Source: Phapecoctavirus DIJ07P2
Reading direction: 5' to 3' (one strand)
Length of the DNA stretch: 64,000 nucleotides
Sequence record: OZ035771.1
The notes beneath the pieces were generated by a model. That model was not told the DNA's origin. It saw only the letters and a list, made by a program, of their open reading frames with translations, and did no database searches. Both the position numbers and the translations under genes were made by a program. Shown here one piece after another: positions 10,308 through 36,116 of the stretch. Within the stretch, counting starts at the first letter, position 1; every line of letters begins with the position of its first letter.

Positions 10308-10370
10308 TCTACACTCGCTATCGCTCGACCCTTCGGGGTTAGGGTAGCATATTTTTTGAAAAAAGTCAAC
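10308..10370. repeat. Intergenic repeat copy 1 (ACTCGCTATCGCTCG ... TTAGGGTAGCATATTTTTTGAAAAAAGTCAA)
   Basis: About 60 bp near-identical to 36054-36116; includes UUCG-type hairpin and, on minus strand, a TTGACT -35-like box. Confidence 0.6.
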
Positions 10371-10372
10371 AC

Positions 10373-10690
10373 TTATTTTTTGGTAAGTAGATAAATCAAT
10401 TGTTCACCTGCTTCTGGTGCATATAGTGCTTTAGTATCGAAGTCAAAGAAGTGAGTGACCCCTGTTACTTTGGATACCCGGATAGATAATCGTGCAAGCT
10501 TAAGCAGATTATCCATTTCCGCAATCTTTGCACGAAACACTGCACGTGTAGCGTCAAAAGCTGCATGTGGCATGTATTTACGATTTAGACTACTACGTTT
10601 AAATTTACGATAATCTGCAATGATCTTGTTGCGTTCTTTGTTCAAGTGCTTTACCAGTGCAGTGTATACATGTGGTTCTTTGTTAGCCAT
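10373..10690 (-). CDS. Hypothetical basic protein (105 aa)
   Basis: Start moved to internal ATG (MANKEPHVY) preceded by GAGGAG RBS. Confidence 0.5.
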   Translation of the reverse strand: MANKEPHVYTALVKHLNKERNKIIADYRKFKRSSLNRKYMPHAAFDATRAVFRAKIAEMDNLLKLARLSIRVSKVTGVTHFFDFDTKALYAPEAGEQLIYLLTKK

Positions 10691-10895
10691 TGTTAATCTC
10701 CTCTTCATATGTTGGTAGTGCATGGTATGCGATCACAGGTGCCAAGTCAAAATAAAAATGACCATTGATAACAGCTATCGTGCCATTGCGTGTTTTGTTA
10801 ACTTCACAGAATCCCTTCTTGCCGTTTGCCATGATTACAAGCCACTCTCCGATAGGAACATCCTCGGTACCAGATACTTTAATCCATCCACTCAC
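10683..10895 (-). CDS. Hypothetical protein (70 aa)
   Basis: ORF overlapping neighbours by a few nt. Confidence 0.45.
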   Translation of the reverse strand: MSGWIKVSGTEDVPIGEWLVIMANGKKGFCEVNKTRNGTIAVINGHFYFDLAPVIAYHALPTYEEEINNG

Positions 10896-11149
10896 TTTAC
10901 TTCCCCTTTGTAATCGGACACTATACCAGGTCTTACTTTTGCCTTAAGATGTTTCAACTCTACCATAGGAGTTGCCACTTGTATAGGGCTAACTTCAACC
11001 TTGTAGATAGTATATTCATAAGTCGCATATTTACCGATGGAATGCAAATACTTAATTGCGTGTTCAGGGGAATCTGCTTCAACATACCCTAAATCTTTCG
11101 TAGTACGACCTTCGGTATCGCCTTCAGTGGTTACGTGATAAAGTGTCAT
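10892..11149 (-). CDS. Hypothetical protein (85 aa)
   Basis: ORF with ATGA coupling. Confidence 0.5.
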   Translation of the reverse strand: MTLYHVTTEGDTEGRTTKDLGYVEADSPEHAIKYLHSIGKYATYEYTIYKVEVSPIQVATPMVELKHLKAKVRPGIVSDYKGEVK

Positions 11150-11469
11150 AAAACCTCCTTCTGGTTGGCTGCTTCAATCATAACGTTAAGAGTCTCCATA
11201 CCGCTTTCAACTGCTTGAGCAATCTCTTGGAACACTGTTTTCTTAAAGATGTATAAAGATCCTGCCTGTAAGCGTTGCACACAGCATAAGAGGGTTTGGT
11301 GATCCATAACAAAGTCTCCATAAGCACAATCAATTTTCCCTGTGATTGGGTTGTCTCGTGAGCGAGGATCGTATTCTAATGTGATATGCGTTACACCAGG
11401 TAAAGTAACAAACTGACAACGGATGTTGACACGTGGTGCAATTGACACGCTAAACAAACTGTTTGACAT
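11146..11469 (-). CDS. Hypothetical protein (107 aa)
   Basis: ORF with ATGA coupling. Confidence 0.5.
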   Translation of the reverse strand: MSNSLFSVSIAPRVNIRCQFVTLPGVTHITLEYDPRSRDNPITGKIDCAYGDFVMDHQTLLCCVQRLQAGSLYIFKKTVFQEIAQAVESGMETLNVMIEAANQKEVL

Positions 11470-11616
11470 TTAAACCTCCTCGTAGTAAGGCAAAGCTTTG
11501 ATCAGCTGTTCTGAAGTGCCATTCTCTGTCCATGTAACCCCGTTGTCAAGAGAAACATACCCTTTCTTATCGATAAATTTACGGAGACAACCAGTGAACT
11601 TGTTTTTGTAGATCAT
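11470..11616 (-). CDS. Hypothetical small protein (48 aa), self-derived
   Basis: MIYKNKFTGCLRKFIDKKGYVSLDNGVTWTENGTSEQLIKALPYYEEV; stop immediately precedes next start. Confidence 0.4.
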   Translation of the reverse strand: MIYKNKFTGCLRKFIDKKGYVSLDNGVTWTENGTSEQLIKALPYYEEV

Positions 11617-12047
11617 TTCTTCTTTCCTTTCTTTAATTTGTTGTGACCTTTACCCTTATAAAGCTTGTGATTACGAGCAGATGGGTTATTTTGGTTCTCC
11701 AGTCGGCTAACAGGTGTATTCCAAAGATTTCCTGCTACAAAAGATGCTGCCACAAGTTCTTCCAGGTATACGAAATCCAAAGCAGGTATCTTTGTTTCCC
11801 TCATCTTGCGTTCTACATTAGACAACACGCCTTCTTCCTTACTGTCTTCTTTTTCAATTACAGACCAACCCTCTTCCTGCCAAGCTTCCCCTCTGAACCA
11901 AGTTTCCATGTTATAACCGTGTTCGTCGAGAATAACACCATCTCGCATCTCAAACCATTCACCACCGCAAAAATAGCTGTGCTCAACACGTCTACCTTCC
12001 TTCATTGCTTCTTTAGCTTCGGTCCAAGTCAGTTTGATGTTTTGCAT
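11613..12047 (-). CDS. DUF2829-like protein (possible Tad2-type anti-Thoeris sponge) with basic tail
   Basis: WTEAKEAMKEGRRVEH...GGEW...WFRGEAW..EGWSV pattern recalled for DUF2829; first gene downstream of a leftward promoter. Confidence 0.35.
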   Translation of the reverse strand: MQNIKLTWTEAKEAMKEGRRVEHSYFCGGEWFEMRDGVILDEHGYNMETWFRGEAWQEEGWSVIEKEDSKEEGVLSNVERKMRETKIPALDFVYLEELVAASFVAGNLWNTPVSRLENQNNPSARNHKLYKGKGHNKLKKGKKK

Positions 12048-12077
12048 TTGTTTTCTCCTCTCGTTTTGTATGAGTTG

Positions 12078-12105
12078 ATCTTAACAGGACTAAAAAGCAT
12101 GTCAA
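12078..12105 (-). promoter_or_regulatory. Leftward sigma70-type promoter (-35 TTGACA, 16-nt spacer, -10 TAAGAT)
   Basis: Reverse complement of 12078-12105 reads TTGACATGCTTTTTAGTCCTGTTAAGAT; followed by GAGAGGAG RBS and the 11613-12047 ORF. Confidence 0.5.
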
Positions 12106-12108
12106 TAC

Positions 12109-12137
12109 TTGATCTGAAATTATTTTCAGGTATCATA
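12109..12137 (+). promoter_or_regulatory. Rightward sigma70-type promoter (-35 TTGATC, -10 ATCATA/TATCAT)
   Basis: Divergent from the leftward promoter; precedes first rightward gene at 12162. Confidence 0.4.
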
Positions 12138-12161
12138 TATGAATATTAACAAGAGAGGTAG

Positions 12162-12455
12162 ATGATGAACATTACTTTAGCAACTAAGAATATTTCTGAA
12201 ACAATTAACGGTTTTGGTGTCATTGTAGCCTTACACGGTAACAACGAGAAATGGTTGGCTTCTTTTGAAGAGGATCGTCAGCACAACATTATTTTAGATG
12301 CTCCTATAAAAATTATGCATATTGTTGGTGAAAGCAAAGTGCTCACTTCCTCCCGTTCAAAAGAACAAATTACAAATGAATTAGTAAAACTGCTTGACAA
12401 TGTTCTTAACATGTTTGATAATGCACCCATCGATACAAAACGTGTCTTAATGTGA
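12162..12455 (+). CDS. Hypothetical protein (97 aa)
   Basis: First ORF of rightward block. Confidence 0.5.
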   Translation: MMNITLATKNISETINGFGVIVALHGNNEKWLASFEEDRQHNIILDAPIKIMHIVGESKVLTSSRSKEQITNELVKLLDNVLNMFDNAPIDTKRVLM

Positions 12456-12467
12456 GAGGAGAACAAA

Positions 12468-12752
12468 ATGTACTATTCACAAGACGAAGCAGCAAACATT
12501 AAACTGGCAGTTGGCGATCTTATTGTGTCACCTAACTACCATTGGGATAACACAGATTTGGTTGAAGTAGTAACTCATGTTGGGTTTGAGGGCGTTGTGC
12601 TCTACACCCTGGGCGGAGGTGTTGTTGGGGAAATGGAACGTTATACAACAACGAAGAAACTGGTAAGCTCTTATCGCATGTTTTTACACCAAGGTTCGGA
12701 AGAGTATACAGCTTTCTTGTTGAAATTAGACGCAGATCGGGAGAAGGCATGA
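12468..12752 (+). CDS. Hypothetical protein (94 aa)
   Basis: ORF with GAGGAG RBS. Confidence 0.5.
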   Translation: MYYSQDEAANIKLAVGDLIVSPNYHWDNTDLVEVVTHVGFEGVVLYTLGGGVVGEMERYTTTKKLVSSYRMFLHQGSEEYTAFLLKLDADREKA

Positions 12753-13108
12753 TGAAAATTGTACACGATGAAATTCAAATAGAAGAAAGTGACCTGATGG
12801 ATTTGGATGCAGCTTTGGGGAAGGTAATCTATGCAGGAATTAAAGCCTTCCGTGAGAAGGCAAACAATAGCACGTTTGTCATGATCCCCACTAAACTGAT
12901 GCGTGTTTTGTATCCAAATAGAAGTGCGCCGTATACAGATGAAGAAGAGGAGACAGGTAGAAGGGAGTGGTTAAATATTTTAGAAAAGATGGAGAATGCT
13001 TTTATTGATAGCGGTAATCCAGAAATCGTGTATGCTGAAGATCAAAGGAAGGCACGATTAGAGGGCCGTCTTTTATTCGCTAGTTATTTTGATAATCTTT
13101 GGAGCTAA
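12749..13108 (+). CDS. Hypothetical protein (119 aa)
   Basis: ATGA-coupled ORF. Confidence 0.5.
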   Translation: MMKIVHDEIQIEESDLMDLDAALGKVIYAGIKAFREKANNSTFVMIPTKLMRVLYPNRSAPYTDEEEETGRREWLNILEKMENAFIDSGNPEIVYAEDQRKARLEGRLLFASYFDNLWS

Positions 13109-13110
13109 AT

Positions 13111-13287
13111 ATGTCTGAATTCTTCACAATGGCTTTCTTAGGGATCTATCTGATTATTAGTGCTGTTGGCTTAATCATGTCTCTAATAGAAGAAATGGGA
13201 ATTAATTGGAATTGTGCATTCGGTATAGCTCTTATGCTCACTCCGGTTTGGATCTACATCTGCAAAGCAGTTGAACTAATTGGTTAA
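13111..13287 (+). CDS. Small membrane protein (58 aa)
   Basis: Start at ATG (MSEFFT); hydrophobic stretch FLGIYLIISAVGLIMSLI. Confidence 0.45.
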   Translation: MSEFFTMAFLGIYLIISAVGLIMSLIEEMGINWNCAFGIALMLTPVWIYICKAVELIG

Positions 13288-13298
13288 TAGGGGGTAAT

Positions 13299-13550
13299 AT
13301 GATTCAGTTCCAAAAAGGTCAAAAGATGACGGTATACGACGCAAAAGATATGGAATTTGCACTTGAACTTCTCGAAGATGCAGGTTTTGTGTGGATCAAC
13401 GGCGGAGAGAAGCCTACGGCTTGGCTTCCACATGAAAAAGTAGTCAACCACACCTTTCCTGACAGTATCAACTGGCATTCTGATGGTAAGATTTGCCGTG
13501 GAAGTTACCCAACAGGTGTCGAGTGGACCATTAAATTAGGAGGGCTTTAA
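13299..13550 (+). CDS. Hypothetical protein (83 aa)
   Basis: ORF with purine-rich RBS. Confidence 0.5.
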   Translation: MIQFQKGQKMTVYDAKDMEFALELLEDAGFVWINGGEKPTAWLPHEKVVNHTFPDSINWHSDGKICRGSYPTGVEWTIKLGGL

Positions 13551-13551
13551 T

Positions 13552-13890
13552 ATGTTTAGTAAAGAGATGAGAGACGTAATTGCCACTCTGGTAGTTGATC
13601 ATGGTGTTGAAGTTGAGCGTCACGTTTGGAAAGATGAGCCTCCTTTCTTTGATTTGGCATCACGGGCTAAAAGTCACATGTATCTCCTTGAAGACGATAA
13701 GGATTTTATTCTGCGTATGCGTTATGATCGAGAGTTTAGAATTCCTCTTGACACAGATCCTGATGATGTAGTATTGTGGTTGGCAGAGCATTTCGCATTT
13801 AACGCTCTACACGGAAGAAGTTTTGGTAATGAACGTTGGGATACCATTTGTCGTAAACATAATATTGAACCAGAATACGGGAGTCTTTAA
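13552..13890 (+). CDS. Hypothetical protein (112 aa)
   Basis: ORF in operon. Confidence 0.5.
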   Translation: MFSKEMRDVIATLVVDHGVEVERHVWKDEPPFFDLASRAKSHMYLLEDDKDFILRMRYDREFRIPLDTDPDDVVLWLAEHFAFNALHGRSFGNERWDTICRKHNIEPEYGSL

Positions 13891-14141
13891 TGCTAAATAT
13901 CAAGCCTAAGATGATTACTGAAGATCAAAAAGATTACATTTATAAATGTGGTCGGGTGTGGAAAGAATACACTAAAGGTAATGAAGTTATTGTAGTTACG
14001 GAACATGCTATTTCTTTATCAGATCTTTTTGGTGATTATTTGCAAGTCATTAAAATTGGTATTGACAGAGGTTTGGTGCAGGTGTTAACATTATCCCAAG
14101 TTGAAGCAGAACACTTAGACAAAATCATTGTCGAGTTCTAA
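13890..14141 (+). CDS. Hypothetical protein (83 aa)
   Basis: ORF with TAATG coupling. Confidence 0.5.
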   Translation: MLNIKPKMITEDQKDYIYKCGRVWKEYTKGNEVIVVTEHAISLSDLFGDYLQVIKIGIDRGLVQVLTLSQVEAEHLDKIIVEF

Positions 14142-14154
14142 GAGGAGAAAGAAT

Positions 14155-14319
14155 ATGATCTCTTTAGAATCAATAGCTTTTAAGAAGGGGTATACCGCAG
14201 GGTTCAAGTTTGGTATGTTTAATAAAGTAAATCCATATTGTCCAAAGACACACAAAAAGGAATTCGAAGAATGGGAAGATGGATTTTCTAAAGGCTACCA
14301 GGCAAAGGGTTGGTTGTAA
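14155..14319 (+). CDS. Hypothetical protein (54 aa)
   Basis: Start at internal ATG after GAGGAG RBS. Confidence 0.4.
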   Translation: MISLESIAFKKGYTAGFKFGMFNKVNPYCPKTHKKEFEEWEDGFSKGYQAKGWL

Positions 14320-14328
14320 GGAGAGAAT

Positions 14329-14493
14329 ATGATTTTAAACTTCATCATCAACTTGTGTTTGACATTGGGACTACTCTGTGCAATAGTATCCCCTCTGGTT
14401 GGTGAATATTTTTCTGAACTGGCGATGTTTATAGTTCTTGGTGCGGCTGTTGCTAACATGTTTGTCGCTGCGATTTGTATGTTGTGGGAATAG
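14329..14493 (+). CDS. Small membrane protein (54 aa), self-derived
   Basis: TAAGGAGAG RBS; two hydrophobic segments (MILNFIINLCLTLGLLCAIV..., ...AMFIVLGAAVANMFVAAICM). Confidence 0.45.
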   Translation: MILNFIINLCLTLGLLCAIVSPLVGEYFSELAMFIVLGAAVANMFVAAICMLWE

Positions 14494-14504
14494 GAGGGAA
14501 GTTT

Positions 14505-14861
14505 ATGAAAAAATTAATCTTAGCCACATTGCTGGCTACCGTAAGCTTCACCACTTACGCTCAAAAATTTGTAGCAGTTAAAACAGATATTGGTAAAGAT
14601 GTTGTGATCACAGGCAACAAGTTTTACTATACACCTGGGAATGGTGTTCTAGAAGAGTGCAAAGATGTTGAGGCATATACAGGAAAAGAAGATAACACGG
14701 AACGTCCTTTTTATTCGATTATAGCTACTTGCAAAAATGAAATAGTAGCTATTAAACAATACAAAGATGCACCTGGAGGAGAGTACTTATTAATCAAGAA
14801 TATTAAGAGTGAAAAAACTGCAAAGTTTACAGTAATTATTTTAAAAGGAGAAACGTTCTAA
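14505..14861 (+). CDS. Putative secreted protein (118 aa)
   Basis: Signal-peptide-like MKKLILATLLATVSFTTYAQ after AGGAGGG RBS. Confidence 0.55.
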   Translation: MKKLILATLLATVSFTTYAQKFVAVKTDIGKDVVITGNKFYYTPGNGVLEECKDVEAYTGKEDNTERPFYSIIATCKNEIVAIKQYKDAPGGEYLLIKNIKSEKTAKFTVIILKGETF

Positions 14862-16000
14862 TGAAATACACTATTTTTGGAGATGTGGCTGTTGTAAATA
14901 AGGAATATGGTGTTGAAGCTAATAAACTTCCTGCTGGAGTTTGGGTTGTCAACTGCGATCCGCACGGTAACTACTCTTTAGTGCGTGGCGAAAGTTTCTC
15001 TCTTCCGAACACTCTTTATGGGGAAACTAAAGACCGCGCCGCACATATTATTAAAACATTTGCTCGTCGTAGTAAAGAAGGTAAAAATACTGGGGTGTTA
15101 CTGACAGGGACAAAGGGCAGTGGTAAGACGATGTTAGCTAAACTGATTAGCATGTCCCTAATGTCCACAGAAGGTTTAGGTATTCCAACCATTTTGGTGA
15201 CACAGCCTTACACAGATGCTGGATTCTTAGAATTTATGAGTAAAATTACAGATCGTGCTGTTGTTTTATTTGACGAGTTTGATAAAGTGTACGCTAAGAA
15301 AGAAGATCAGGAAGCACTGTTGACCTTGTTGGATGGAACAGGAAGTGGAAATAAACTTTACATCCTCACTAAAAATAGTGGCTATATCTCGGAATATTTT
15401 GTAAACCGTCCTAGTCGTATCTACTACAGTTTCAATTACGATAAACTGTCTAGTGAAACTATGTTAGATTACTTGGATAAGAACTTGGTAAATAAAAAGC
15501 ACGTAGATAACTTCCAACGTTTATGGGATGTTAGCACAGAGTTGTCTTTCGATGTTATTCAAGGCATTGTAGAAGAATTGAATTTCTATCCAAAAATGAC
15601 TTTTAAAGAATGTCTGGAAATGATGGGTATTTCTTTAGGCAACGATGCTAAATGGAATGTGGCTTCTATCGTAGCTAATGGCAAAACACTGAAGGTGAAT
15701 TGGATCAATAACTGGCACGACTTCACCCCTACTAAGTTTTTGTCGGGTGCTTGTTCCCTGAACATCTATCTGCAAAGCTTGAAAGATGATGAAGTTGAAG
15801 CAATGGAAACCAACAGTTATGTTATCCTGGATGAAGATGGTGATCCACATATTGATCTATGTGCAACGGCGGATGGTCTAACTTGTGATCTGATTGAAGG
15901 TGGTAAGATTCTGGTTATGAGCACTACACCAGGAAACACTCTGCGAGTGGTGCTGGAGCCTGTAACACAACGTTCCACCACACTGGGTAGCGTGTTCTAA
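14861..16000 (+). CDS. AAA-family ATPase
   Basis: Walker A GTKGSGKT, Walker B VVLFDEFDK, sensor-like ILTKN. Confidence 0.7.
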   Translation: MKYTIFGDVAVVNKEYGVEANKLPAGVWVVNCDPHGNYSLVRGESFSLPNTLYGETKDRAAHIIKTFARRSKEGKNTGVLLTGTKGSGKTMLAKLISMSLMSTEGLGIPTILVTQPYTDAGFLEFMSKITDRAVVLFDEFDKVYAKKEDQEALLTLLDGTGSGNKLYILTKNSGYISEYFVNRPSRIYYSFNYDKLSSETMLDYLDKNLVNKKHVDNFQRLWDVSTELSFDVIQGIVEELNFYPKMTFKECLEMMGISLGNDAKWNVASIVANGKTLKVNWINNWHDFTPTKFLSGACSLNIYLQSLKDDEVEAMETNSYVILDEDGDPHIDLCATADGLTCDLIEGGKILVMSTTPGNTLRVVLEPVTQRSTTLGSVF

Positions 16001-16017
16001 TAAGGCTACCTTATTAA

Positions 16018-16039
16018 ACCCGCTTCGGCGGGTTTTGTT
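16018..16039 (+). terminator. Intrinsic terminator (ACCCGC-TTCG-GCGGGT + T-tract)
   Basis: GC hairpin with UUCG loop followed by TTTTGTT just after AAA ATPase stop; same hairpin recurs at 39114 and 45251. Confidence 0.6.
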
Positions 16040-16077
16040 ATATTGATTTCAGTTTAATAGGAAGAGAATTGTTAGAT

Positions 16078-17076
16078 ATGCCAGTAAAGAAGAGTATTGA
16101 AACATATATGGAAGAATGTAAGCCGATAGCTGAGGCTAAAGGGATTACCATTCTCGGCACGTATGGAGAAGATAAAGGTGTGCATACGAAGATGATCAAT
16201 AGTTGTGAGCATGGTCATGAATGGAATACTACAACGTTTCACAGTTTTAAAGATGGTCGAGGTTGTCCTAAGTGCGCCTACAGGGAACGTTCGAAAAAGA
16301 GAAGCAAAGCTATCACTATTCCAGACCAGCAACACATACAAGATTTTATGAAGGTAGGTAAATTTAAGGAAGGCACTATTTTCACCAATACAGGGGAACG
16401 TAAAGGGTGTGATATAGTATGGATGGTTGAATGTCCTGTTTGCTCTCATGATGAATATGTGGAAGCTGGGGTGTGTGATGGTAAATTCTATGCTACCGGA
16501 AGTCATCTTAAACGTGGGTGTCTCCCTTGCCGCTGTTCTACGAGTTACAAATACACAGAGGATCAGACCACCTATAGAACAAGAAAGGAAGTAGAAAGGA
16601 GAGGATATATATTGGTAGGATGGATCGGTAAACCTTCAACAATGGGTAAGTTTAAATATAGATGTAAGGAGCACGGGGAACAGATAGGGCGTGCAGATGG
16701 TTTGCTACATAAGGGGAGTGGGTGTCCGCAGTGCGGGGGCCAAAATCAACAACAATGTTACATTAATCATATTTATGATGAAGATGGTATTCTTTGTGCA
16801 CTGAAGTTTGGTATTGCCAATAGTAGTGATCGCCGTATCAAAGAACAGAATAGCCGCAATGTGTTTACTATGAGACAAGTTCAAGTGTGGCAGTTCCCCA
16901 CTGTGAAGCAGTGTAAAAATTCAGAAAAGTATTGCAAAAAGGTGTTAGACACAGAAGCAGTGAGCAAATATGCTATGCCAGACGGCTACACAGAAACAGT
17001 GGAGCTATCTTGTCTGGCATCAATACAAAACATTTATAAACTTTATGGTGGAATATTACAGGAGGAAACATGTTAG
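16078..17076 (+). CDS. Cys-rich protein with repeated G-x-G-C-P-x-C zinc-ribbon-like motifs; possible nuclease
   Basis: DGRGCPKCAY, KRGCLPCRC, GSGCPQCGG repeats; function not assignable by eye. Confidence 0.5.
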   Translation: MPVKKSIETYMEECKPIAEAKGITILGTYGEDKGVHTKMINSCEHGHEWNTTTFHSFKDGRGCPKCAYRERSKKRSKAITIPDQQHIQDFMKVGKFKEGTIFTNTGERKGCDIVWMVECPVCSHDEYVEAGVCDGKFYATGSHLKRGCLPCRCSTSYKYTEDQTTYRTRKEVERRGYILVGWIGKPSTMGKFKYRCKEHGEQIGRADGLLHKGSGCPQCGGQNQQQCYINHIYDEDGILCALKFGIANSSDRRIKEQNSRNVFTMRQVQVWQFPTVKQCKNSEKYCKKVLDTEAVSKYAMPDGYTETVELSCLASIQNIYKLYGGILQEETC

Positions 17077-17435
17077 TTGACGTTCAAATTATGCGCAACG
17101 AAAGAATGGACTTCTTTGAAGCAGTAGAGAAACATCTGATCAGATGGGACTATGAATTTGTTCCTGCTGGATGTGGACCAGTAGAGCATTTAGCGGAAGA
17201 CGACGATGTATACATGATCATTCGTCAAGTGTACCAGACAGACCAGTGTGAAGAAACTCCCGAACTGATTTTGTTTGAGTGTAAAGATCTTGCAAAATAT
17301 TTTGACTATGGCGGAAAAGAGGGTCATAATCTCTCCAGATACAATAAACGTCTACTTATCTTAGACTACATGCGGAACAATAAACACAAACTCATCGACG
17401 CAGACGCAGTTTATGGCTACTGGTGGATGGATTAA
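17070..17435 (+). CDS. Hypothetical protein (121 aa)
   Basis: ORF overlapping upstream stop. Confidence 0.5.
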   Translation: MLVDVQIMRNERMDFFEAVEKHLIRWDYEFVPAGCGPVEHLAEDDDVYMIIRQVYQTDQCEETPELILFECKDLAKYFDYGGKEGHNLSRYNKRLLILDYMRNNKHKLIDADAVYGYWWMD

Positions 17436-17448
17436 CAAAGGAGAAACT

Positions 17449-27937: not shown

Positions 27938-27952
27938 TCGACAACAAAACAA

Positions 27953-27979: not shown

Positions 27980-27989
27980 GCCCGAACAA

Positions 27990-28980: not shown

Positions 28981-29140
28981 ATAAATAATAGTCTGCTTGT
29001 CATGAGCGGGATTAGTTGACAATGTTCCGTCATATGATGAAGTTGCCAAGCCATTGATAAATAAGTGTTTGTGTGATTTATAATCAGGTGGCCCACCTTG
29101 TCGCTATGTTGGCATGAGCCTTGCATAAGTCATTGAATAC

Positions 29141-29161
29141 GAATGATAATTATTCTCATTC
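29141..29161. promoter_or_regulatory. Fur-box-like palindromic operator candidate (GAATGATAATTATTCTCATTC)
   Basis: Near-palindrome; matches Fur consensus at most positions by eye. Confidence 0.4.
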
Positions 29162-29501
29162 GCATGATATTTGGGAATTGTCGCTGCGTGGACCTGACGG
29201 CCCGAAAATTCGCGTTAAGCACTTCTTACGTATACGCCATGATTTTTGCCATATGATATTGATTCTATTAGATATTCTTGCCATTATTGCCATGAAACAT
29301 GGTGTCCCGAAATAATCTCTCCCCGTAGATATTTTGGGTTACTTTTTATACAAGAGTGGGGTGTCAAAAATAATCAGTATATATGGGATAATTGATAGGA
29401 ATCCCCTATGATAATTCGATTGTAATTCCCTAAGATTGATCGTATGATGTTGGTGATTGATGATTGCCATGAAAGATGGCTAACGATGAGAGGAGATTGT
29501 C

Positions 29502-29876
29502 ATGCAAGAGAGTAAAAATGTTCCGTTGAGTAGTGCAACATTGCTTCGCTTCTATAAAGCATGGATTGCCAACTATCCTGCAATGAATCGCACAACGAGT
29601 GGCTTATGTGGTTGTCTGGTAGATTATGTAAATGATTTTGTTGGTGAGACAACTAGAGAAGAAGATAGAAGATGGCGGGATAGTTTGTTGGACCGTTTGA
29701 AATATGAAATGAGGAAACAATTTACATGTGCAGGGCTGGACTATAATCTTCCGTTCAATGCAGATTGCATGGATTACCTTTCAGAGTGTATAAACTTGGC
29801 GTGTCATACCAACACGTTACGTCTTCAGTGGGTGAAAGACAGAATTGAAGATGCAAATAATGCTTGCATTGAATAA
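29502..29876 (+). CDS. Hypothetical protein, paralog family member A (124 aa)
   Basis: GAGGAG RBS; shares GLCGCL, LPFN and RLQWVKDRI motifs with ORFs at 33354 and 34659. Confidence 0.55.
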   Translation: MQESKNVPLSSATLLRFYKAWIANYPAMNRTTSGLCGCLVDYVNDFVGETTREEDRRWRDSLLDRLKYEMRKQFTCAGLDYNLPFNADCMDYLSECINLACHTNTLRLQWVKDRIEDANNACIE

Positions 29877-29925
29877 AGATGTTTGTATAATGGATGACAT
29901 AACAGATAGCCAATGAGGAGATGAA

Positions 29926-30135
29926 ATGAAGAATTTGAAAACTGTCACAATGTTCTTGACTAATCCTACACGTGTGCAAGCACTGGCTAAAGCCAGCCGT
30001 GTAGCTGTAGAATTCCAAAACTTTAAGCCGTCCGTTGTGACAGGCAGTGAAACGTGTGTTATCGATTTCATTAACGAATACTTCCGAGGGAATCCGGTTG
30101 GTCGTTACTTTATTAAGGGTCTGAAGGATGCATAA
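29926..30135 (+). CDS. Hypothetical protein (69 aa)
   Basis: ORF with GAGGAG RBS. Confidence 0.5.
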   Translation: MKNLKTVTMFLTNPTRVQALAKASRVAVEFQNFKPSVVTGSETCVIDFINEYFRGNPVGRYFIKGLKDA

Positions 30136-30358
30136 CATGAAACGCATGAAAATTCGTATTGAGAATGATGGTGGTTATAAAGGATTGGCACATGCAAAAT
30201 TTCCACTTGTGTTGGAAGCTACGGTGGAATACAGTGGGCTTGCTCATGTGCGATTCTCGAAGATGATGGAAGTGCAGGAATGGTTTTGGGACGAGATAGA
30301 TGCACGAGAAGGAGAAGATTATGTTTTCTTTCCTCACGAATATAACATTGTCTATTAA
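30128..30358 (+). CDS. Hypothetical protein (76 aa)
   Basis: Overlapping-coupled ORF. Confidence 0.5.
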   Translation: MHNMKRMKIRIENDGGYKGLAHAKFPLVLEATVEYSGLAHVRFSKMMEVQEWFWDEIDAREGEDYVFFPHEYNIVY

Positions 30359-30370
30359 AGGTTGTGTGCA

Positions 30371-30610
30371 ATGATCACACCACAACAGAATGAAGCAGCA
30401 ATGGATCTTCTTGATAGTTTGTATTTCGATAATTGGTACTCTGAATGTGAATGGATGAATATGCAAACTCTGAAAGAGAAGACAAAAGCGTTGATTACAG
30501 TAGATCAATTTCTTGCAGAGACGGAAAGAATGAATTATGATATGGCATCTCGCGCACGACGCGTTTCCATTTTCAATAAAATGTTAGCATTATGGGGAGG
30601 TAGAAAATGA
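30371..30610 (+). CDS. Hypothetical protein (79 aa)
   Basis: Start at ATG (MITPQQ). Confidence 0.5.
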   Translation: MITPQQNEAAMDLLDSLYFDNWYSECEWMNMQTLKEKTKALITVDQFLAETERMNYDMASRARRVSIFNKMLALWGGRK

Positions 30611-30834
30611 GACAATTCACTATACTGGAAGCACATGTGCAATGTGTTGCAGATTATGTCAAAGAACATTCAAGTTTGTTGGATGTAACCTGTGCAGTGC
30701 AAAATGATGTAGGTATTGTCTGTGTGCAACATATCCTATCTGAAACTCGTTACGAAGTATTCCGTGCTACCTTGTTTGGATGTGATCGTGTGAACTGGGT
30801 AAAAGAACGTGTAGCAGAAGAAATAATTGGTTGA
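30607..30834 (+). CDS. Hypothetical protein (75 aa)
   Basis: ATGA-coupled ORF. Confidence 0.5.
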   Translation: MRQFTILEAHVQCVADYVKEHSSLLDVTCAVQNDVGIVCVQHILSETRYEVFRATLFGCDRVNWVKERVAEEIIG

Positions 30835-30859
30835 CAGAAGGATCTGTCTTTGTCATAAT
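30831..30859 (+). promoter_or_regulatory. Sigma70-type promoter (TTGACA, 17 nt, CATAAT)
   Basis: Precedes ORF at 30889. Confidence 0.45.
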
Positions 30860-30888
30860 CATCTCATCGAAACAGAGAGGAGAAAATC

Positions 30889-31302
30889 ATGAAAAAGTTT
30901 ATTTGCACCCGTTCCACTAACAGTGATATCCTTGTAGGTAAGGTTATCAAAGGAGAACTCTTCCATGCAAACGGTAAGAAATATATTCTGCTGAAAGATT
31001 CTTTCAACGGGGAATATCCGCGCTGCACTTTCTTCAATTACAACACTCCATTTGCTTTAGAAGGAGATGCTTGGGAATGGGCTGAACTCAATCCTTGTTG
31101 TGAGGAAGAAGAATCTATGTTCTTAGGTTTAAACGTTTACCGTGTAGATTACACCATGTGCGGAGCGGAACATTCTGTTCGCGTAGAAGCCGAATCCAAA
31201 CTACAAGCACCTTTCAAGGCAGGATTGACTTTGGGTCATTGTTTGGCAAACATTGAAGATGTTGTGATCCAAAGAGTTGTTTTAGAGAAAGAGGCTATTT
31301 GA
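30889..31302 (+). CDS. Hypothetical protein (137 aa)
   Basis: GAGAGGAG RBS. Confidence 0.55.
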   Translation: MKKFICTRSTNSDILVGKVIKGELFHANGKKYILLKDSFNGEYPRCTFFNYNTPFALEGDAWEWAELNPCCEEEESMFLGLNVYRVDYTMCGAEHSVRVEAESKLQAPFKAGLTLGHCLANIEDVVIQRVVLEKEAI

Positions 31303-31327
31303 CAGAAGACGGTACAATATTTAAAAT
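31299..31327 (+). promoter_or_regulatory. Sigma70-type promoter (TTGACA, 17 nt, TAAAAT)
   Basis: Precedes ORF at 31357. Confidence 0.45.
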
Positions 31328-31356
31328 ATAAAGATTAACCACAAAAGGAGAGAAAC

Positions 31357-31656
31357 ATGCAAGTTGAAGACCTGATCAAGATTCTGAATAAAGCCAAAGA
31401 GAAGGGTGCTATCAAAGACTGGAAACGTGAAACAAGTGAAGATTTATCTCATTGTTGTCGAGAATTTTACATTGAAGGTATTGCTAACGATCATTATACT
31501 ATTGAATGGTATATTAACTTAATGACTCTTAAACACGGTTCATTTGAGGTTTGGTTTGATGACATTGATGTAAATGGTTTTCATCCTGGCTATAAAATCG
31601 CTATGCAGTTATCTTATCGTAGAGAAGTTGTAGCACATTTGGGTTTACATAACTAA
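31357..31656 (+). CDS. Hypothetical protein (99 aa)
   Basis: AAGGAGAG RBS. Confidence 0.55.
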   Translation: MQVEDLIKILNKAKEKGAIKDWKRETSEDLSHCCREFYIEGIANDHYTIEWYINLMTLKHGSFEVWFDDIDVNGFHPGYKIAMQLSYRREVVAHLGLHN

Positions 31657-31666
31657 GGAGAAAAGA

Positions 31667-31990
31667 ATGCAAGCAGTTGTTAACGAAGCTATTATGAACT
31701 TATCCTTCTTGTTAGCTGGTTTAGGAGGTGTTCTCATAGGTTTGGCTCTTATCTGGTGTATTCGTCGATTAATCGGGTACCGACAAAAAGGTGTTTCATG
31801 TTTTGTATCTTACAATTTTACAACTGCTTACAGCAATGAGGTTGGATCTGGTAATGCTCAAGCATTTTTACCAACATATCCTCCTACGGTGGAGGATATT
31901 CGAAACTTGGAAGTAGAACTTATGGGACTAAGTGATAACTATACATCTCTCGTTATTCAAAATATTTTTCGACTAAAACAGGAGGCGTGA
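31667..31990 (+). CDS. Membrane protein (107 aa)
   Basis: TM segment LSFLLAGLGGVLIGLALIWCI. Confidence 0.5.
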   Translation: MQAVVNEAIMNLSFLLAGLGGVLIGLALIWCIRRLIGYRQKGVSCFVSYNFTTAYSNEVGSGNAQAFLPTYPPTVEDIRNLEVELMGLSDNYTSLVIQNIFRLKQEA

Positions 31991-32203
31991 ATGAAGGCAC
32001 ATTACCCTCATCCCTTTGATCCTAAAAACAAAGCCGTAATTCTTCGTCAGTGGCAACGGGTTTGTCGTACTAAATGTCCAATTAATAGCCAACACAATGT
32101 GGACAAGGATTATCTTGGGACATTTGTTGAATACACTTACATAGACAAAAACAAGCGTAAACAACATGTCGAGGAATACTGCTTAAAAGTAGAATGGCTG
32201 TAA
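31991..32203 (+). CDS. Hypothetical protein (70 aa)
   Basis: ORF coupled to upstream gene. Confidence 0.5.
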   Translation: MKAHYPHPFDPKNKAVILRQWQRVCRTKCPINSQHNVDKDYLGTFVEYTYIDKNKRKQHVEEYCLKVEWL

Positions 32204-32215
32204 ATAATAAATACC

Positions 32216-32244
32216 TTGACAAGTGTTTATTCGTTTTGTAAAGT
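32216..32244 (+). promoter_or_regulatory. Sigma70-type promoter (TTGACA, 17 nt, TAAAGT)
   Basis: Precedes the recombinase gene. Confidence 0.45.
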
Positions 32245-32273
32245 GAGAATACAGCAATGGTTTAGGAGTGGTT

Positions 32274-32945
32274 ATGAAAAAGTTTGTTGTTTACAGTCGT
32301 CTTTCTAAACAGAAAAAAGGTGAGGCACAATATGGTATGGAGAGCCAAGAGAACGATATCCGTTACTTCTTAGACTCTGTGCCTGATGCTGAAGTTATTG
32401 GTCAATTTTCTGAATACTATTCGGGTAAGGGCGATTGGAAGCAACGTAAGGAACTGGTTAAAGCGGTTGAAATGTGTAAAGCTACCGGAGCAACTTTATT
32501 GGTAGCTAAAGTTGACCGCTTGGGTCGTAACAACGCATCCGTAGCAACTCTTCTAGAAATGATTGATGTTAAGATAGCCATCATGCCAGACGCAGATAAA
32601 ATGGTTATACAGCTTCTGTCTGTTCTGGCTGAACAAGAAGTTAGAGGTATTGCTGATCGTATTAAAAAGGGTCTTGCTGTAGCAAAAAGCAAAGGTGTTT
32701 TATTAGGCAGTGCTAATCCTAAAACTGCTGCTGCACGTAGAAAAGGAAAAATGGAATACAATTCTGTTAAAGCAGACGCTTTTGCAGAGACATTTCGTGA
32801 ACGCTTGGAGATCCTTAGAGATTTAAATACACCTTACAAAACTATTGCTGAAAAATTCAATAGTAAGAAAATAGCAACAGCACGTGGTGGTAAATGGGAT
32901 GCTAAAACTGTTTCTCGTTTGTGTGCCAGACTTAACATTAAATAG
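32274..32945 (+). CDS. Serine recombinase (resolvase/invertase family)
   Basis: YSRLS N-terminal motif, LVAKVDRLGRN, AEQEVRGIADRIKKGLAVAKSKG match resolvase catalytic-domain motifs as recalled; C-terminal HTH-like region. Confidence 0.65.
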   Translation: MKKFVVYSRLSKQKKGEAQYGMESQENDIRYFLDSVPDAEVIGQFSEYYSGKGDWKQRKELVKAVEMCKATGATLLVAKVDRLGRNNASVATLLEMIDVKIAIMPDADKMVIQLLSVLAEQEVRGIADRIKKGLAVAKSKGVLLGSANPKTAAARRKGKMEYNSVKADAFAETFRERLEILRDLNTPYKTIAEKFNSKKIATARGGKWDAKTVSRLCARLNIK

Positions 32946-32953
32946 GAGAGGAT

Positions 32954-33376
32954 ATGAAACAAGAAAATGAATCTGTAGATCACTTAATCATGCTGTCAGC
33001 CCTTTTTGCCGGATGGGACGTATTTTTTGAAAATTTATTCAATTCTGCTACAGATGGTTCCGATTTTATGCGGCAGTTTAAACGACGAACTGTTGAGGAC
33101 TATGCTTTCTATTCAGGTCGGATTGAAAAAGGTTACGAAGATACAAATACAACACTCACCATTAAAGTTTTAGATGTGATGTTTAGTGTTATAGATGCTA
33201 TCGACGAAAGTCTTCCGATCCTAGACAATTGTAATACGAAAGCCTATGTTTACAAAATAGCTCGTGCTTATGTGTCTGCAAACAGTTGTCTTCTTTCCAC
33301 CCAGATTGCCGTGAACAATCTTGCCAACTTGTTTGACGAAGGAGAAACTTTTTATGACAATCGATTTGAAGTGTAA
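32954..33376 (+). CDS. Hypothetical protein (140 aa)
   Basis: ORF with GGAGAGG RBS. Confidence 0.5.
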   Translation: MKQENESVDHLIMLSALFAGWDVFFENLFNSATDGSDFMRQFKRRTVEDYAFYSGRIEKGYEDTNTTLTIKVLDVMFSVIDAIDESLPILDNCNTKAYVYKIARAYVSANSCLLSTQIAVNNLANLFDEGETFYDNRFEV

Positions 33377-33719
33377 GAGGATTCTTTTAGATTTCTATAA
33401 TAATTGGTTAGAACACCTCCGTCTCTTTCCAAGAGAAAGTGGTTACGCTGATGTTGGCTTATGCCGAGGTCTGCGTATGTATATAAGTGATGAATTTCGG
33501 GCCGAGCATTCTTTAGCATATTCTGTTTATGGTATGCAATTAGCCAGTTTTGAAAACGCTGGCTTAGATACAACTTTCCCATTTAACACAGCAAAATCTT
33601 TTGAGCAAGAGTGTAAGGAAAAACGTTGCATGTTTAATGAAAAACGTGTACAGTGGGTTAAGGATCGAGTTAAACAACTGGAACAAGAGTTGGATTTCTT
33701 TTATGACGAGGCAGAATAA
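33354..33719 (+). CDS. Hypothetical protein, paralog family member B (121 aa)
   Basis: Start at MTIDLK after AAGGAG; contains GLCRGL, GLDTTFPFN, RVQWVKDRV. Confidence 0.5.
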   Translation: MTIDLKCKRILLDFYNNWLEHLRLFPRESGYADVGLCRGLRMYISDEFRAEHSLAYSVYGMQLASFENAGLDTTFPFNTAKSFEQECKEKRCMFNEKRVQWVKDRVKQLEQELDFFYDEAE

Positions 33720-33991
33720 TGGATAGACAAACCTTAAAAACAATGGCAGATGCTACTAATTCCCCGTACTTTGAAAAAGTAAGTAAATTGGTAGTTCAAG
33801 CCGCAGAGGAAGGATATTATAACATAAACATCCACAACCCAAATCTTATACTAGAAATGCCAAGTGATAAGAAGATACAAGAGAGTATCTGTGAAGGTAT
33901 TGTTAGTTACTGGCGCGAGCGTGGGTGTGGTGCAAACATGGCTTTAGACAGTGCAAACATTGTAAGATATATAAATATTTCTTGGGGATGA
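33719..33991 (+). CDS. Hypothetical protein (90 aa)
   Basis: TAATG-coupled ORF. Confidence 0.5.
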   Translation: MDRQTLKTMADATNSPYFEKVSKLVVQAAEEGYYNINIHNPNLILEMPSDKKIQESICEGIVSYWRERGCGANMALDSANIVRYINISWG

Positions 33992-33995
33992 TTTT

Positions 33996-34607
33996 ATGAT
34001 TCAATGCACTCATATCCAAATTACTTGGAGAGATGAACTTTACCATTTGGGACAATTTACTGTAGGGGAAACATACCTTGTCATTAAACATAATCCTAAC
34101 ATCGCAAACTTTGACAGGATGGTTCTTGTTGAGGACGATCTAGGTCAAACTTATTCTTTAGATCTAAAATATCCGTTTTCTTACGGCTACGATTGGATCG
34201 TTACTTTTGAAGACGTGGAGGAAAATAAAACAATGAACGAAAAAAATTCTTGGTATTATCGTTGTGAACTGCCGCCAGTAGGTGAAAAGGTTATCTTTGT
34301 TCCTGATTTGGAAAGATATTCTTGGGACAGTTCTTATTCTGTTCCTAAAGAAGGCACCGAAGTTGAAGTTATTGCACATCGCACAACTTCGCATGGTAAC
34401 GATGTAGCAGTTGTTTTCTGGGATGATGAAGGCGCTGCTTGTGCAGGTGGCTTTGTTGCAGGTAATTTTGAACCGCTGCCAGATCCTTTGAAGGAGGCAA
34501 TTTTAGGCGTAGCTTCTTTTGGACTCTCTTACACATCTGCACAAGAGATCGTAGAAGGTATTTTAAACGGTACCGTTCCAAACGAAATTTTTAAACAGAT
34601 TAAATAA
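33996..34607 (+). CDS. Hypothetical protein (203 aa)
   Basis: ORF followed by terminator. Confidence 0.55.
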   Translation: MIQCTHIQITWRDELYHLGQFTVGETYLVIKHNPNIANFDRMVLVEDDLGQTYSLDLKYPFSYGYDWIVTFEDVEENKTMNEKNSWYYRCELPPVGEKVIFVPDLERYSWDSSYSVPKEGTEVEVIAHRTTSHGNDVAVVFWDDEGAACAGGFVAGNFEPLPDPLKEAILGVASFGLSYTSAQEIVEGILNGTVPNEIFKQIK

Positions 34608-34612
34608 TAGTT

Positions 34613-34637
34613 GCACCCCGTTCTGCGGGGTGTTATT
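34613..34637 (+). terminator. Intrinsic terminator (CACCCCG-TTCT-GCGGGGTG + T-rich)
   Basis: Hairpin immediately after stop at 34607. Confidence 0.55.
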
Positions 34638-34658
34638 GTATACGTAAAGGAGGCGCTA

Positions 34659-35019
34659 ATGTATTACACTGAAGACTACATATTGTATAACTTTTTTAAA
34701 GGCTGGTTGAAATGGGCTGAACAAGCTCCTGTCGGAGATTGTGTTTTTCCTTGGGATTCTCGTCAAGGTTTGTGTCGTTGTTTGGAAGATTGGCTTATAA
34801 CCACAAACTACAACTCAGAAACTAAGAAATCTACATCACAGAGACTAAAAAATGTTATTTGAAGAAGATGGTTTAGATCCGATTTATCCTTTCGGTGAGG
34901 AAAGTTTCCACAATGGTCTTTTCCTTGGCACTCAACATTATGATAAAGATCGTGTAGATTGGGTAAAAGAAAAGGTAGCACAGTATGAATGGGGGTTAAG
35001 AATTATCACCGCTGGTTAG
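34659..35019 (+). pseudogene. Paralog family member C with +1 frameshift (possible pseudogene, programmed shift or sequence error)
   Basis: Frame 0 encodes ...GLCRCLEDW... to stop at 34862; +1 frame from 34861 encodes GLDPIYPFG...DRVDWVKEKV, the conserved C-terminal half; A6 run near junction. Confidence 0.45.
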
Positions 35020-35189
35020 AAAGCTATCTTAAGAAATGCGAACTTGGTGTTCCAGGTTATACTTACGACACGGACGAGATTCTTGATGAAATGGAAGTTT
35101 GGTTTAAAGAGCCTCGTGAACTATTGGCAAATATTCTAATGGCTTGGGATGGTACGGCACAAAGCATCGAAGGAGGTAGAAATGAGTAA
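34989..35189 (+). CDS. Hypothetical protein (66 aa)
   Basis: ORF overlapping the end of the frameshifted paralog. Confidence 0.45.
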   Translation: MGVKNYHRWLESYLKKCELGVPGYTYDTDEILDEMEVWFKEPRELLANILMAWDGTAQSIEGGRNE

Positions 35190-35316
35190 GAAATTGTTTA
35201 ATATTCGTGAGAATCGTGATGGATCGTTCTCTGTAGTCAATGAATTTAACGTTTCGGTTGGGACTTTTATTACTAAACGTCAAGCAGAACAAGTAAGAGA
35301 TACTTTAAACAAGTAA
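35182..35316 (+). CDS. Small hypothetical protein (44 aa), self-derived
   Basis: GAAGGAGG RBS; MSKKLFNIRENRDGSFSVVNEFNVSVGTFITKRQAEQVRDTLNK. Confidence 0.45.
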   Translation: MSKKLFNIRENRDGSFSVVNEFNVSVGTFITKRQAEQVRDTLNK

Positions 35317-35333
35317 GTTTTTAAGGGGGACTT

Positions 35334-35753
35334 ATGTTAGGTAAGATCAAAGCTTTTTTCAAACGTGTTATTGAAGGAAGTCCAACAGAAGGTGCATTAG
35401 GAAGATCCCTAACAGGAGAACCACTTGCCATAATTTCTATCAGTCGGCATGGTGGATATTCCATTCGACAAACACCTTTAGGTATAAAAGGTAGTATGCT
35501 TTCTTGGACAATATCTCAAGTTGGTGATAACAGGCTTGCAGCTATAGCATTGCTTCGTGGGGAGTATGACTATTGTTTATCAGCATCTTGTAAAAAGCAC
35601 CTTATAGAGCACATTAGAGACAGAGTAGAAAGAGAAGGCGGATACTTCTTCGAAACTAAGAGAAACCAACAAGGGACTCTTGACTTCACTAAGGTTTACT
35701 GGGACAATCATACTCGTCAAACTGTTGAACAAATTCTGGAGGAAAGATGTTAA
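35334..35753 (+). CDS. Hypothetical protein (139 aa)
   Basis: AAGGGGG RBS. Confidence 0.55.
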   Translation: MLGKIKAFFKRVIEGSPTEGALGRSLTGEPLAIISISRHGGYSIRQTPLGIKGSMLSWTISQVGDNRLAAIALLRGEYDYCLSASCKKHLIEHIRDRVEREGGYFFETKRNQQGTLDFTKVYWDNHTRQTVEQILEERC

Positions 35754-35956
35754 AAGCTTTTGCTATATACTCTACTGTAGGATTCTTTTATTGGATTATA
35801 GTTATTGTTGGATGTTGGTTAGGTTCTTGTGTTGTAATGGGAGAATGGTTAACATACAATGTATTTGAATGGGATGTAGTTTGTAGATCATTACTTGTTA
35901 TATGGACTGTTATTGTTTGTTGGATAACTGTTAGTCTAACATTGGATCTATACTGA
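35747..35956 (+). CDS. Small membrane protein (69 aa)
   Basis: Two hydrophobic segments. Confidence 0.45.
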   Translation: MLKAFAIYSTVGFFYWIIVIVGCWLGSCVVMGEWLTYNVFEWDVVCRSLLVIWTVIVCWITVSLTLDLY

Positions 35957-36053
35957 TTAATAGATGGTAGATAGATGATCATAGTTTATCTACCTTCACT
36001 TACGTTTCATACCTCACTATCGTGAGTAACATGAAACATTATTATATAGAAAT

Positions 36054-36116
36054 CTACTACTCGCTATCGCTCGTAAACATATGTTTAGGGTACCATATTT
36101 TTTTGAAAAAGTCAAT
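36054..36116. repeat. Intergenic repeat copy 2 (ACTCGCTATCGCTCG ... TTAGGGTACCATATTTTTTTGAAAAAGTCAA)
   Basis: Near-identical to 10308-10370, same orientation. Confidence 0.6.

Follow-up and report, generated by a model that had tools for sequence, protein, structure and literature searches.

The stretch of DNA analyzed here (referred to as "the window") comprises 64,000 nucleotides of Phapecoctavirus DIJ07P2 (sequence record OZ035771.1), a phAPEC8/ESCO13-like myovirus of ~150 kb that belongs to the Stephanstirmvirinae and is 95-99% identical to many records. In an original prediction, made from the sequence, an intergenic element was noted that occurs twice in this stretch. We find both copies, at positions 10308-10370 (copy A) and 36054-36116 (copy B), in a shared orientation and each within an intergenic gap (10197/10236-10372 and 35957-36316, respectively). 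Copy A is located 1.7 kb inside a long block of minus-strand genes (834-12047); copy B is found inside a plus-strand block (12162-38438), 2.4 kb before the block ends, and points against it. The left block of the repeat, ACTCGCTATCGCTCG, is identical between the copies (10313-10327 and 36059-36073), and the right block is identical at 28 of 31 positions (TTAGGGTAGCATATTTTTTGAAAAAAGTCAA vs TTAGGGTACCATATTTTTTTGAAAAAGTCAA). Both blocks of the consensus proposed originally are real, but the variable segment before TTAGGG is composed of 11 nucleotides (nt) rather than 13, and the literal pattern given for the right half has no matches because it is one base short in a T/A run, which differs between the copies (T6-G-A6 in one, T7-G-A5 in the other). 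The corrected promoter form, TTGACT-N14-TGN-TACCCT, is found in the 64-kb window exactly at the two copies, without mismatches, while a shuffled-sequence control yields 0.49 matches at ≤2 mismatches. A search with the pattern of the box described below also returned both copies and no further site.

On the minus strand, the 31 aligned copies, of which 23 are distinct and which come from several phage lineages, share one layout: TTGACT (or, in one of the lineages, TTTACT), 17 nt, TGC-TACCCT-AA, a variable stretch of 9-14 nt, and then CGAGCGA(T)AGCGAG, here called the box. The −35-like TTGACT of the original prediction is present in both window copies (10364-10369 and 36110-36115); it agrees with the sigma-70 consensus TTGACA at five of six positions and is invariant, as TTGACT or TTTACT, across the 31 copies. 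The spacer between the −35 and −10 elements, expected to be 17 ± 1 bp, is kept in length but not in sequence, i.e., it varies freely in sequence but is 17 nt long in 30 of the 31 copies and 18 nt in L059. The downstream motif TGcTACCCTAA, found at 10341-10349 in copy A (TGC + TACCCT), is invariant across the 31 copies; copy B of the window reads TGG + TACCCT (36087-36095). This hexamer has the form TAnnnT preceded by TGn, with −12T, −11A and −7T all present. The −10 region, GCTACCCTAA, also resembles KCTAYRCTTAA, the motif preferred by sigma-S. The seventh base after TACCCT is a purine in all 23 distinct variants, and the base just before it is a pyrimidine in 22 of them. The predicted transcription starts are thereby placed at a G (10334) in copy A and at an A (36080) in copy B. 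A small dyad, also noted in the original prediction, spans the predicted start in both copies, as ACCCTTCGGGGT in copy A (10328-10339) and as the perfect palindrome TAAACATATGTTTA in copy B (36074-36087). It is significant in copy B (7 bp) and weakly enriched across the family, where the mean best stem is 3.9 as compared with 2.7 in shuffled sequences. Overall, the conservation pattern is that of a predicted extended −10 sigma-70 promoter with its start site, unlike that of a protein operator, a recombination site or a terminator. Of the "shared promoter/terminator module" suggested originally, the promoter part is retained (TTGACT-N17-TACCCT with TGn, a conserved purine at the start and a structured leader), while the terminator part is not, as there is no U-tract on the minus strand.

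The box comprises 13-14 nt and is located on the non-template strand, at about +8 to +21 of the predicted transcript in the window copies and at about +7 to +22 across the variants. In copy A it reads CGAGCGATAGCGAG (10314-10327), and alignment and covariation indicate a hairpin composed of a C-G pair, tandem G.A and A.G pairs, a G-C pair, a C-G pair and a GAUA loop, with the core GCGATAGC. In copy B (box at 36060-36073), comparison of folds extends the hairpin to 36057-36076 by flanking U.G, U-A and A-U pairs. The loop is GAUA in the window, GAA in most other lineages and GAAA in L243, and changes within the box are confined to it; this fits a hairpin rather than two DNA half-sites that require a fixed spacing. 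The first pair flanking the box is A-U in five types and C-G in five. The covariation score of the box hairpin is 0.338, compared with 0.136, and none of 500 shuffles reached it. Of the cells of this hairpin, 85.9% are paired, compared with 73.5% for shuffled sequences and 13-48% after sliding of the partners. The helix reaches the predicted +1 in about half of the variants. The cores GCGATAGC (window), GCGAAGC (most relatives) and GCGAAAGC (L243) all conform to GC-G-N(1-2)-A-GC, an assignment made here from sequence alone; the corresponding mini-hairpin class is defined as GCGNAGC/GCGNNAGC (PMC13037366).

A second, two-tier hairpin is found 15-30 nt past the box hairpin. In nine leaders of the A type, i.e., those corresponding to copy A, 97.8% of its cells are paired, compared with 86.7% in shuffled sequences and 40-51% with partners slid, and both-sided changes are seen at seven pairs. 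Compensatory changes, as expected for a structured cis-regulatory or small RNA, are thus found above the controls. Two U.G pairs of this hairpin are kept in 9/9 and 8/9 of the A-type sequences; on the opposite strand these would be A.C mismatches, just as the tandem G.A of the box would be pyrimidine mismatches. Only the minus strand of the window can form these U.G pairs and, in the box, the G.A pairs, which fixes it as the functional strand. The second hairpin repeats features of the box in several lineages: a tandem GA forms its internal loop, and a C-G pair closes an apical loop of the type G-N-A or G-N-N-A. The A-type leaders were also used for a covariance model (R1), which found the B-type copies weakly and placed copy A in a wrong register; its alignment (A5) was excluded from the pair counts.

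The repeat search proposed in the original prediction identifies two copies in the window, and the element recurs well beyond it. With a 75-nt query around copy A, BLAST returned 323 places in 136 phage records: two per genome in Phapecoctavirus, up to three in Justusliebigvirus (the phi92-like sister genus) and one or two in related Klebsiella phages. In the 78 kb examined of phage VEcB, only two full copies are present, and the third place seen in Justusliebigvirus was not located. Broad pattern scans of IMG/VR and metagenomes returned mostly chance matches, and after filtering for the full motif in Python, 23 distinct variants remained. The two loci are the same in all relatives, without presence/absence polymorphism. 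The GenBank records that were checked either carry no annotation at the element or have nothing but "hypothetical protein" calls across it. Because it is conserved so widely, i.e., in 136 records as well as in diverged metagenome and IMG/VR copies, a chance origin of the repeat is excluded. The two copies are best explained as ancient paralogues of one promoter-plus-leader module. Covariance models of Rfam 15, applied at permissive thresholds to both strands of both copies, gave nothing above E = 1, and scans of both copies for tRNA and transfer-messenger RNA gave no match. Literature searches on this phage group combined with promoters or transcriptomes, and on the box sequences, returned no description of the element. 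As a probable phage early promoter with a conserved leader, the element is of a familiar kind, but it is undescribed in Rfam, GenBank features or the papers searched.

A scan of bacterial genomes returned only phage contamination, one distant relative and chance matches to an unrelated repeat. The distant variant, L243, is situated on a 243.6-kb contig of a metagenome-assembled genome (CBCTJT010000005.1), at reverse-complement position ~628. It is a whole module, with TTGACT-17-TACCCT, a box with a GAAA loop and a two-tier hairpin with tandem GA, and is followed by ~1.5 kb without convincing open reading frames (ORFs), tRNAs or Rfam matches. Two other bacterial assemblies, a Proteobacteria metagenome-assembled genome (L242) and Lysobacteraceae JHOS43 (L244), carry copy A with flanks nearly identical to those of the window, most likely as a result of phage contamination or co-assembly; a second short JHOS43 contig (L246) also matched the pattern. 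Environmental bacterial hairpins that share the core, e.g., CATTCC-GAGCGAAGCGAG-GGAATC, were seen in an Ardenticatenaceae metagenome-assembled genome (L130/L247) and in L166 and L170. In L130/L247 an inverted second copy of the hairpin is found ~110 bp away, which resembles the ends of a miniature transposable element. Apart from the stable hairpin core, hairpins of this type are probably unrelated to the phage element.

The gene upstream of copy A ends 3 nt before the −35 hexamer, which makes copy A a predicted internal promoter of its block; in VEcB this minus-strand block is >30 kb long. The predicted leader comprises 138 nt, from the predicted start to an AGGAGAG ribosome-binding site and an ATG at 10196, and its part downstream of the box extends over 10197-10313. 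The first gene downstream (9999-10196, minus strand) encodes a 65-residue protein of unknown function (phrog_25113). In the A-type copies of Justusliebigvirus, Klebsiella-type phages and metagenomes, the Shine-Dalgarno sequence and ATG of a small membrane protein are located 10-25 nt past the second hairpin. Copy A is thus co-directional with the minus-strand operon.

The surroundings of copy B differ. The region from its −35 to the end of the third hairpin (36117-35966) is 82% identical to phage phiWec181, whereas adjacent coding DNA is 48% identical, which identifies copy B as a selected non-coding unit of ~150 bp. Past the box hairpin, this unit harbors a minus-strand hairpin at 36003-36038, GUUUCAU...CUCAC-GAUA-GUGAG...AUGAAAC, with two compensated pairs relative to phiWec181 and homologous hairpins in other lineages, and a further minus-strand hairpin at 35966-35994, GGUAGAUA...UAUCUACC, with which, in the comparison with phiWec181, the conserved non-coding block ends. 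We do not regard a 64-residue minus-strand ORF behind copy B (35788-35982) as a gene, since it is not conserved, is of low complexity, is reduced to ~22 codons in phiWec181 and overlaps a plus-strand ORF that is conserved. Copy B thus probably gives rise to a short structured RNA of ~115-130 nt, i.e., it would be a small RNA gene. The inner part of its first downstream hairpin (36013-36029; CUCAC-GAUA-GUGAG) is a fully Watson-Crick look-alike of the box (36060-36076; CGAGC-GAUA-GCGAG), with the loop and the closing pair shared, such that the RNA would display two similar C-GAUA-G loops.

Convergent with copy B is a plus-strand gene (35747-35956) that encodes a 69-residue protein with two predicted membrane segments and 41% amino-acid identity to its phiWec181 homologue. 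Divergent from copy B is a promoter-like site on the plus strand, TTGACA-18-TACATT with TG (36250-36279), which serves the gene that starts at 36317. Between copy B and this promoter (36125-36212) there are short direct repeats, ACCTATCAAT (36125 and 36156), TAAGTCTTA (36148 and 36167) and CCTATAGT (36188 and 36205), each present twice; a 10-mer of these repeats is not enriched window-wide, and phiWec181 likewise retains CCTATCAATTAT upstream of its B copy. Such repeats may be regulator sites. In Klebsiella-type relatives, the B-type module is found upstream of a second promoter and a gene for a small acidic protein, a homologue of which was sought in the window and in VEcB but not found. The acidic protein (L184 2001-2216, L049 800-1048) is composed of ~70-80 residues, has the strongly acidic tail MSYCMFENTSNDMQDIIDKMYED...EEEDED and belongs to phrog_26791/8760, of unknown function; that it is an early protein of the DNA-mimic type is speculation.

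With conservation of the repeat, a promoter-type pattern, a defined strand and covariation in both hairpins observed, we consider it likely that each copy is an extended −10 sigma-70 host promoter fused to a conserved structured leader on the minus strand. Host RNA polymerase-sigma-70 holoenzyme would fire on the minus strand from each copy, and transcription would start ~7 nt after TACCCT. The first 25-35 nt of the transcript would fold into a stem-loop topped by the invariant box (C-G, tandem G.A/A.G, G-C, C-G and the G(N)NA loop), and the two-tier second hairpin would form 15-30 nt later. At copy A this unit would act as an internal promoter of a long minus-strand early/middle operon, the leader continuing into the next gene. 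At copy B, where there is no conserved ORF behind the promoter, the product would be a short structured RNA (~115-130 nt) in convergent orientation to the neighboring plus-strand gene. The simplest reading of the 5′ stem-loop is that it protects or marks the transcript, in the manner of the 5′-terminal stem-loops that shield Escherichia (E.) coli mRNAs from RNase E, and its invariant top suggests that it is read by a specific factor.

A number of observations weigh against this explanation. The TACCCT hexamer agrees with TATAAT at only three of six positions, and its invariant CCC has no reason in promoter function alone; these bases are partially complementary to the box on the plus strand, but the pairing is broken in copy B without compensation. 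The complementarity between −6..−1 and +2..+8, i.e., the dyad at the start site, cannot form within an RNA that starts at +1. In the genus of the window, the lower stem of the 5′ hairpin is weak: in copy B, 4-5 nt at the 5′ end are left unpaired, and for copy A there is an alternative fold. Copy B and its VEcB counterpart (7824-7858) oppose the surrounding plus-strand genes, and copy B is not followed by a canonical terminator. Furthermore, the start positions are predicted, and a search of the literature found no transcriptome of any related phage.

Early promoters of phages T7 (A1-A3) and T5 (the N25 class) are recognized by host sigma-70; they occur several times per genome and display a TTGAC(T/A) −35 element, an A/T-rich spacer of 17 nt and a conserved initial transcribed sequence. 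The element shares with them the sigma-70-type −35, the 17-nt spacer, the multiple copies and the conserved initial transcribed sequence, but its −10 is TACCCT with TGn instead of a TATAAT-like hexamer, it transcribes an invariant 13-14-nt box and two covarying hairpins, and it is present in just two or three copies per genome. Stem-loops at the 5′ end, as in the ompA 5′ untranslated region, stabilize mRNA against RNase E, and in many variants the hairpin of the element likewise begins no more than a few nt from the predicted 5′ end. A simple stabilizer requires no invariant sequence, whereas the top of this hairpin is invariant across lineages, which suggests specific recognition. In lambda (nutL/nutR) and HK022 (putL/putR), two near-identical cis elements with a conserved box and hairpin(s) are also found just past early promoters. 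However, both copies of the element have the same direction, one is without an operon, and neither has an Rfam match. As a candidate nut site of the lambda type the element was rejected, since there is no CGCTCTTA-like boxA on the transcribed strand and since, unlike with boxB, the variable hairpin differs between copies A and B of one genome.

The alternatives differ in the strand and in the type of molecule that would be recognized. Read on the plus strand, the element could be an intrinsic or bidirectional terminator, in which the complement of the box pairs with that of the −10 around a variable hairpin, followed by a T-run. Such a fold is stable in copy A (−16.9 kcal/mol, z = −2.75; GCUAUC pairs with GGUAGC and is followed by AUAUUUUUU), 10328-10345 is listed in a terminator scan and copy B is situated between plus-strand genes. 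In copy B, however, the plus-strand fold is no better than that of shuffled sequences (−6.2 kcal/mol, z = +1.49), and an uncompensated G-to-C change in TAGC disrupts the outer stem. The T-run, which is the A-rich promoter spacer read on the other strand, starts 3 nt away from the stem and is absent from L049, L059, L142 and L184. In addition, a plus-strand reading places copy A and all A-type copies antisense to every neighboring gene, and the conserved U.G pairs of the second hairpin reside on the opposite, minus strand. A GC-rich stem with a U-tract on the strand of the upstream gene, as expected for an intrinsic terminator, is not found, and none of the minus-strand hairpins is followed by a U-tract; termination is thus a very unlikely function. 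A role of the copies as recombination sites or homing-endonuclease targets in DNA, as was also proposed originally, is extremely unlikely. They are direct repeats 25.7 kb apart with a T-run/A-run dyad in the spacer, and a resolvase-family protein and an HNH endonuclease are encoded elsewhere in the window, but no endonuclease or recombinase gene adjoins either copy, the sequence of the A/T-rich spacer dyad is not conserved, and both loci are occupied in all relatives. Neither a conserved crossover or cleavage sequence with its enzyme gene nor an insertion polymorphism was found, and the conservation is that of a promoter with a folded RNA.

It is also conceivable, although unlikely, that the box acts as DNA too, as an exceptionally stable GCG(N)NAGC mini-hairpin that the non-template strand would adopt during transcription of the leader and that a protein would read, resulting in antitermination (with a non-NusG or highly diverged reader) or in initiation of replication from an R-loop. 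A more specific proposal is that the box is an ops-like element at which a NusG-family antiterminator, RfaH or a functional analogue, is bound, such that the polymerase resists pausing and Rho over a long operon. Consistent with this proposal, the box is found on the non-template strand of a promoter-proximal leader, where ops is located, and copy A heads an operon of >30 kb in relatives. The core (GCGATAGC, GCGAAGC or GCGAAAGC) belongs to the hairpin class of RfaH GCGGTAGC and Bacteroides UpxY YGCGNAGCR (PMC11213015, PMC13037366). The window box matches ops, GGCGGTAGCGTG, at 9 of 12 positions and shares the GCG(N)NAGC core with the RfaH ops and Bacteroides opsX-UpxY sites (PMC5995543, PMC11213015), and there are plasmids that carry their own RfaH paralogue with an ops-like site directly past the promoter (PMC11880322). 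However, when aligned to ops as AGCGATAGCGAG, the box has A at positions 5 and 11. The ops hairpin, closed by C3:G8, holds G5/T6 in its loop; RfaH recruitment in vitro is lost with the G5A exchange, and T11G, the exchange examined at position 11 rather than T11A, ranks among the strongest defects in vivo (PMC5995543). The pause-inducing T11-G12 is replaced by A-G, i.e., unlike in ops/opsX there is no conserved TG pause dinucleotide, and the sequence past the box varies. Most other lineages harbor GCGAAGC, which lacks the T that RfaH flips out. A tblastn search with RfaH over Stephanstirmvirinae records found no homologue, there is no NusG or KOW family among the Pfam matches listed for 109 window ORFs, and no RfaH/NusG homologue was thus detected in these phages. 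Furthermore, the box is embedded in a longer, covarying, G.U-rich stem that spans 25-35 nt, a length that exceeds a transcription bubble and indicates RNA, and copy B has no operon to antiterminate. From the A residues at positions 5 and 11, the loss of the T in most lineages, the lack of a detected RfaH/NusG homologue and the long stem, we conclude that the box is not an RfaH ops site, and ops-like antitermination in general appears improbable. Elsewhere in the window, at 43286-43297 on the plus strand, GGCGGTAGCGTA matches the E. coli ops 12-mer at 11 of 12 positions; it is antisense within the minus-strand gene 43177-43575 and is judged to be a chance match. We also assign a low probability to a role as origins of the T4 oriF/oriG type, where the promoter RNA stays as an R-loop and the displaced strand folds into mini-hairpins that resist the single-stranded DNA-binding protein and prime replication or load the replisome. 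This role would explain the conserved non-coding block of copy B regardless of gene direction as well as the presence of two or three copies per genome; the first ~30 transcribed bases are purine-rich, and both window copies have an A/T-rich stretch past the box. Loops of the type G-N-A or G-N-N-A closed by C-G follow the rule for stable DNA hairpins and are found at the priming sites of G4, St-1 and alpha3 and at RSF1010 ssiA, and the exact sequences GCGAAGC and GCGAAAGC of relatives also recall the mini-hairpins of N4 virion RNA polymerase promoters (PMC13037366). The G4-type and N4 hairpins serve primase or a phage RNA polymerase and do so in single-stranded DNA (PMC13037366), whereas the box, which starts at about +7 to +10, is part of the initial ~25 transcribed bases past a sigma-70 promoter and has a stem extension with G.U pairs. 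The conserved U.G (G.T) pairs and the heavy use of G.U in the stems fit RNA better than DNA, the A-type second hairpin keeps a short, constant spacing to a ribosome-binding site, which is the arrangement of an mRNA leader, and the GC skew shifts only where the gene strand switches, at neither of the copies, i.e., it gives no origin signal. A host promoter with a structured RNA leader remains our preferred explanation.

A regex scan of the window also identified ~16-20 other promoter units on the plus strand, between 19349 and 26933. These are composed of an A-rich upstream region, TTGACA, a spacer of 16-17 nt and TAAGAT, TAAACT or TAATAT, followed by (GTAyCACATAG), by a GC-rich hairpin within a few bases, with a covarying stem (GGCGGCAatggTGCCGC, GCGGGAAatggTTTCCCGC, GGGGCGacaaGCGCCCC), and then by CACAACAGAAGAGAGA, with a ribosome-binding site, and the ATG of a small gene. 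Their start region resembles that of T7 A3 (GAT-GTAyCACAT). A promoter with a 5′ hairpin is thus the normal build of early genes here, and the two-copy element represents a separate class within it. Pfam domains in window ORFs of at least 70 residues include an HNH/NUMOD endonuclease (834-1340), NrdD with intein/Hint hits, an Acb2/Tad1-type hairpin domain, SIR2, NADAR, CapR, Phage_tudor, PhoH, a resolvase and enzymes of the dTDP-rhamnose pathway.

Phages of the Stephanstirmvirinae (phAPEC8, phi92 and relatives) have been widely isolated for therapy, while their transcription programme is unmapped. For these phages, the element supplies two precise predicted early start sites, a leader/small-RNA motif that is absent from Rfam and a defined box of 13-14 nt. 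If the box were read as a hairpin of the non-template strand, control of the ops type would be extended to phages, and, under any such DNA-level reading, no control element of the ops or mini-hairpin type would have been described earlier in a large virulent coliphage. As an RNA element, it would be a candidate stabilizer or operator of early phage messages and a compact part for engineering.

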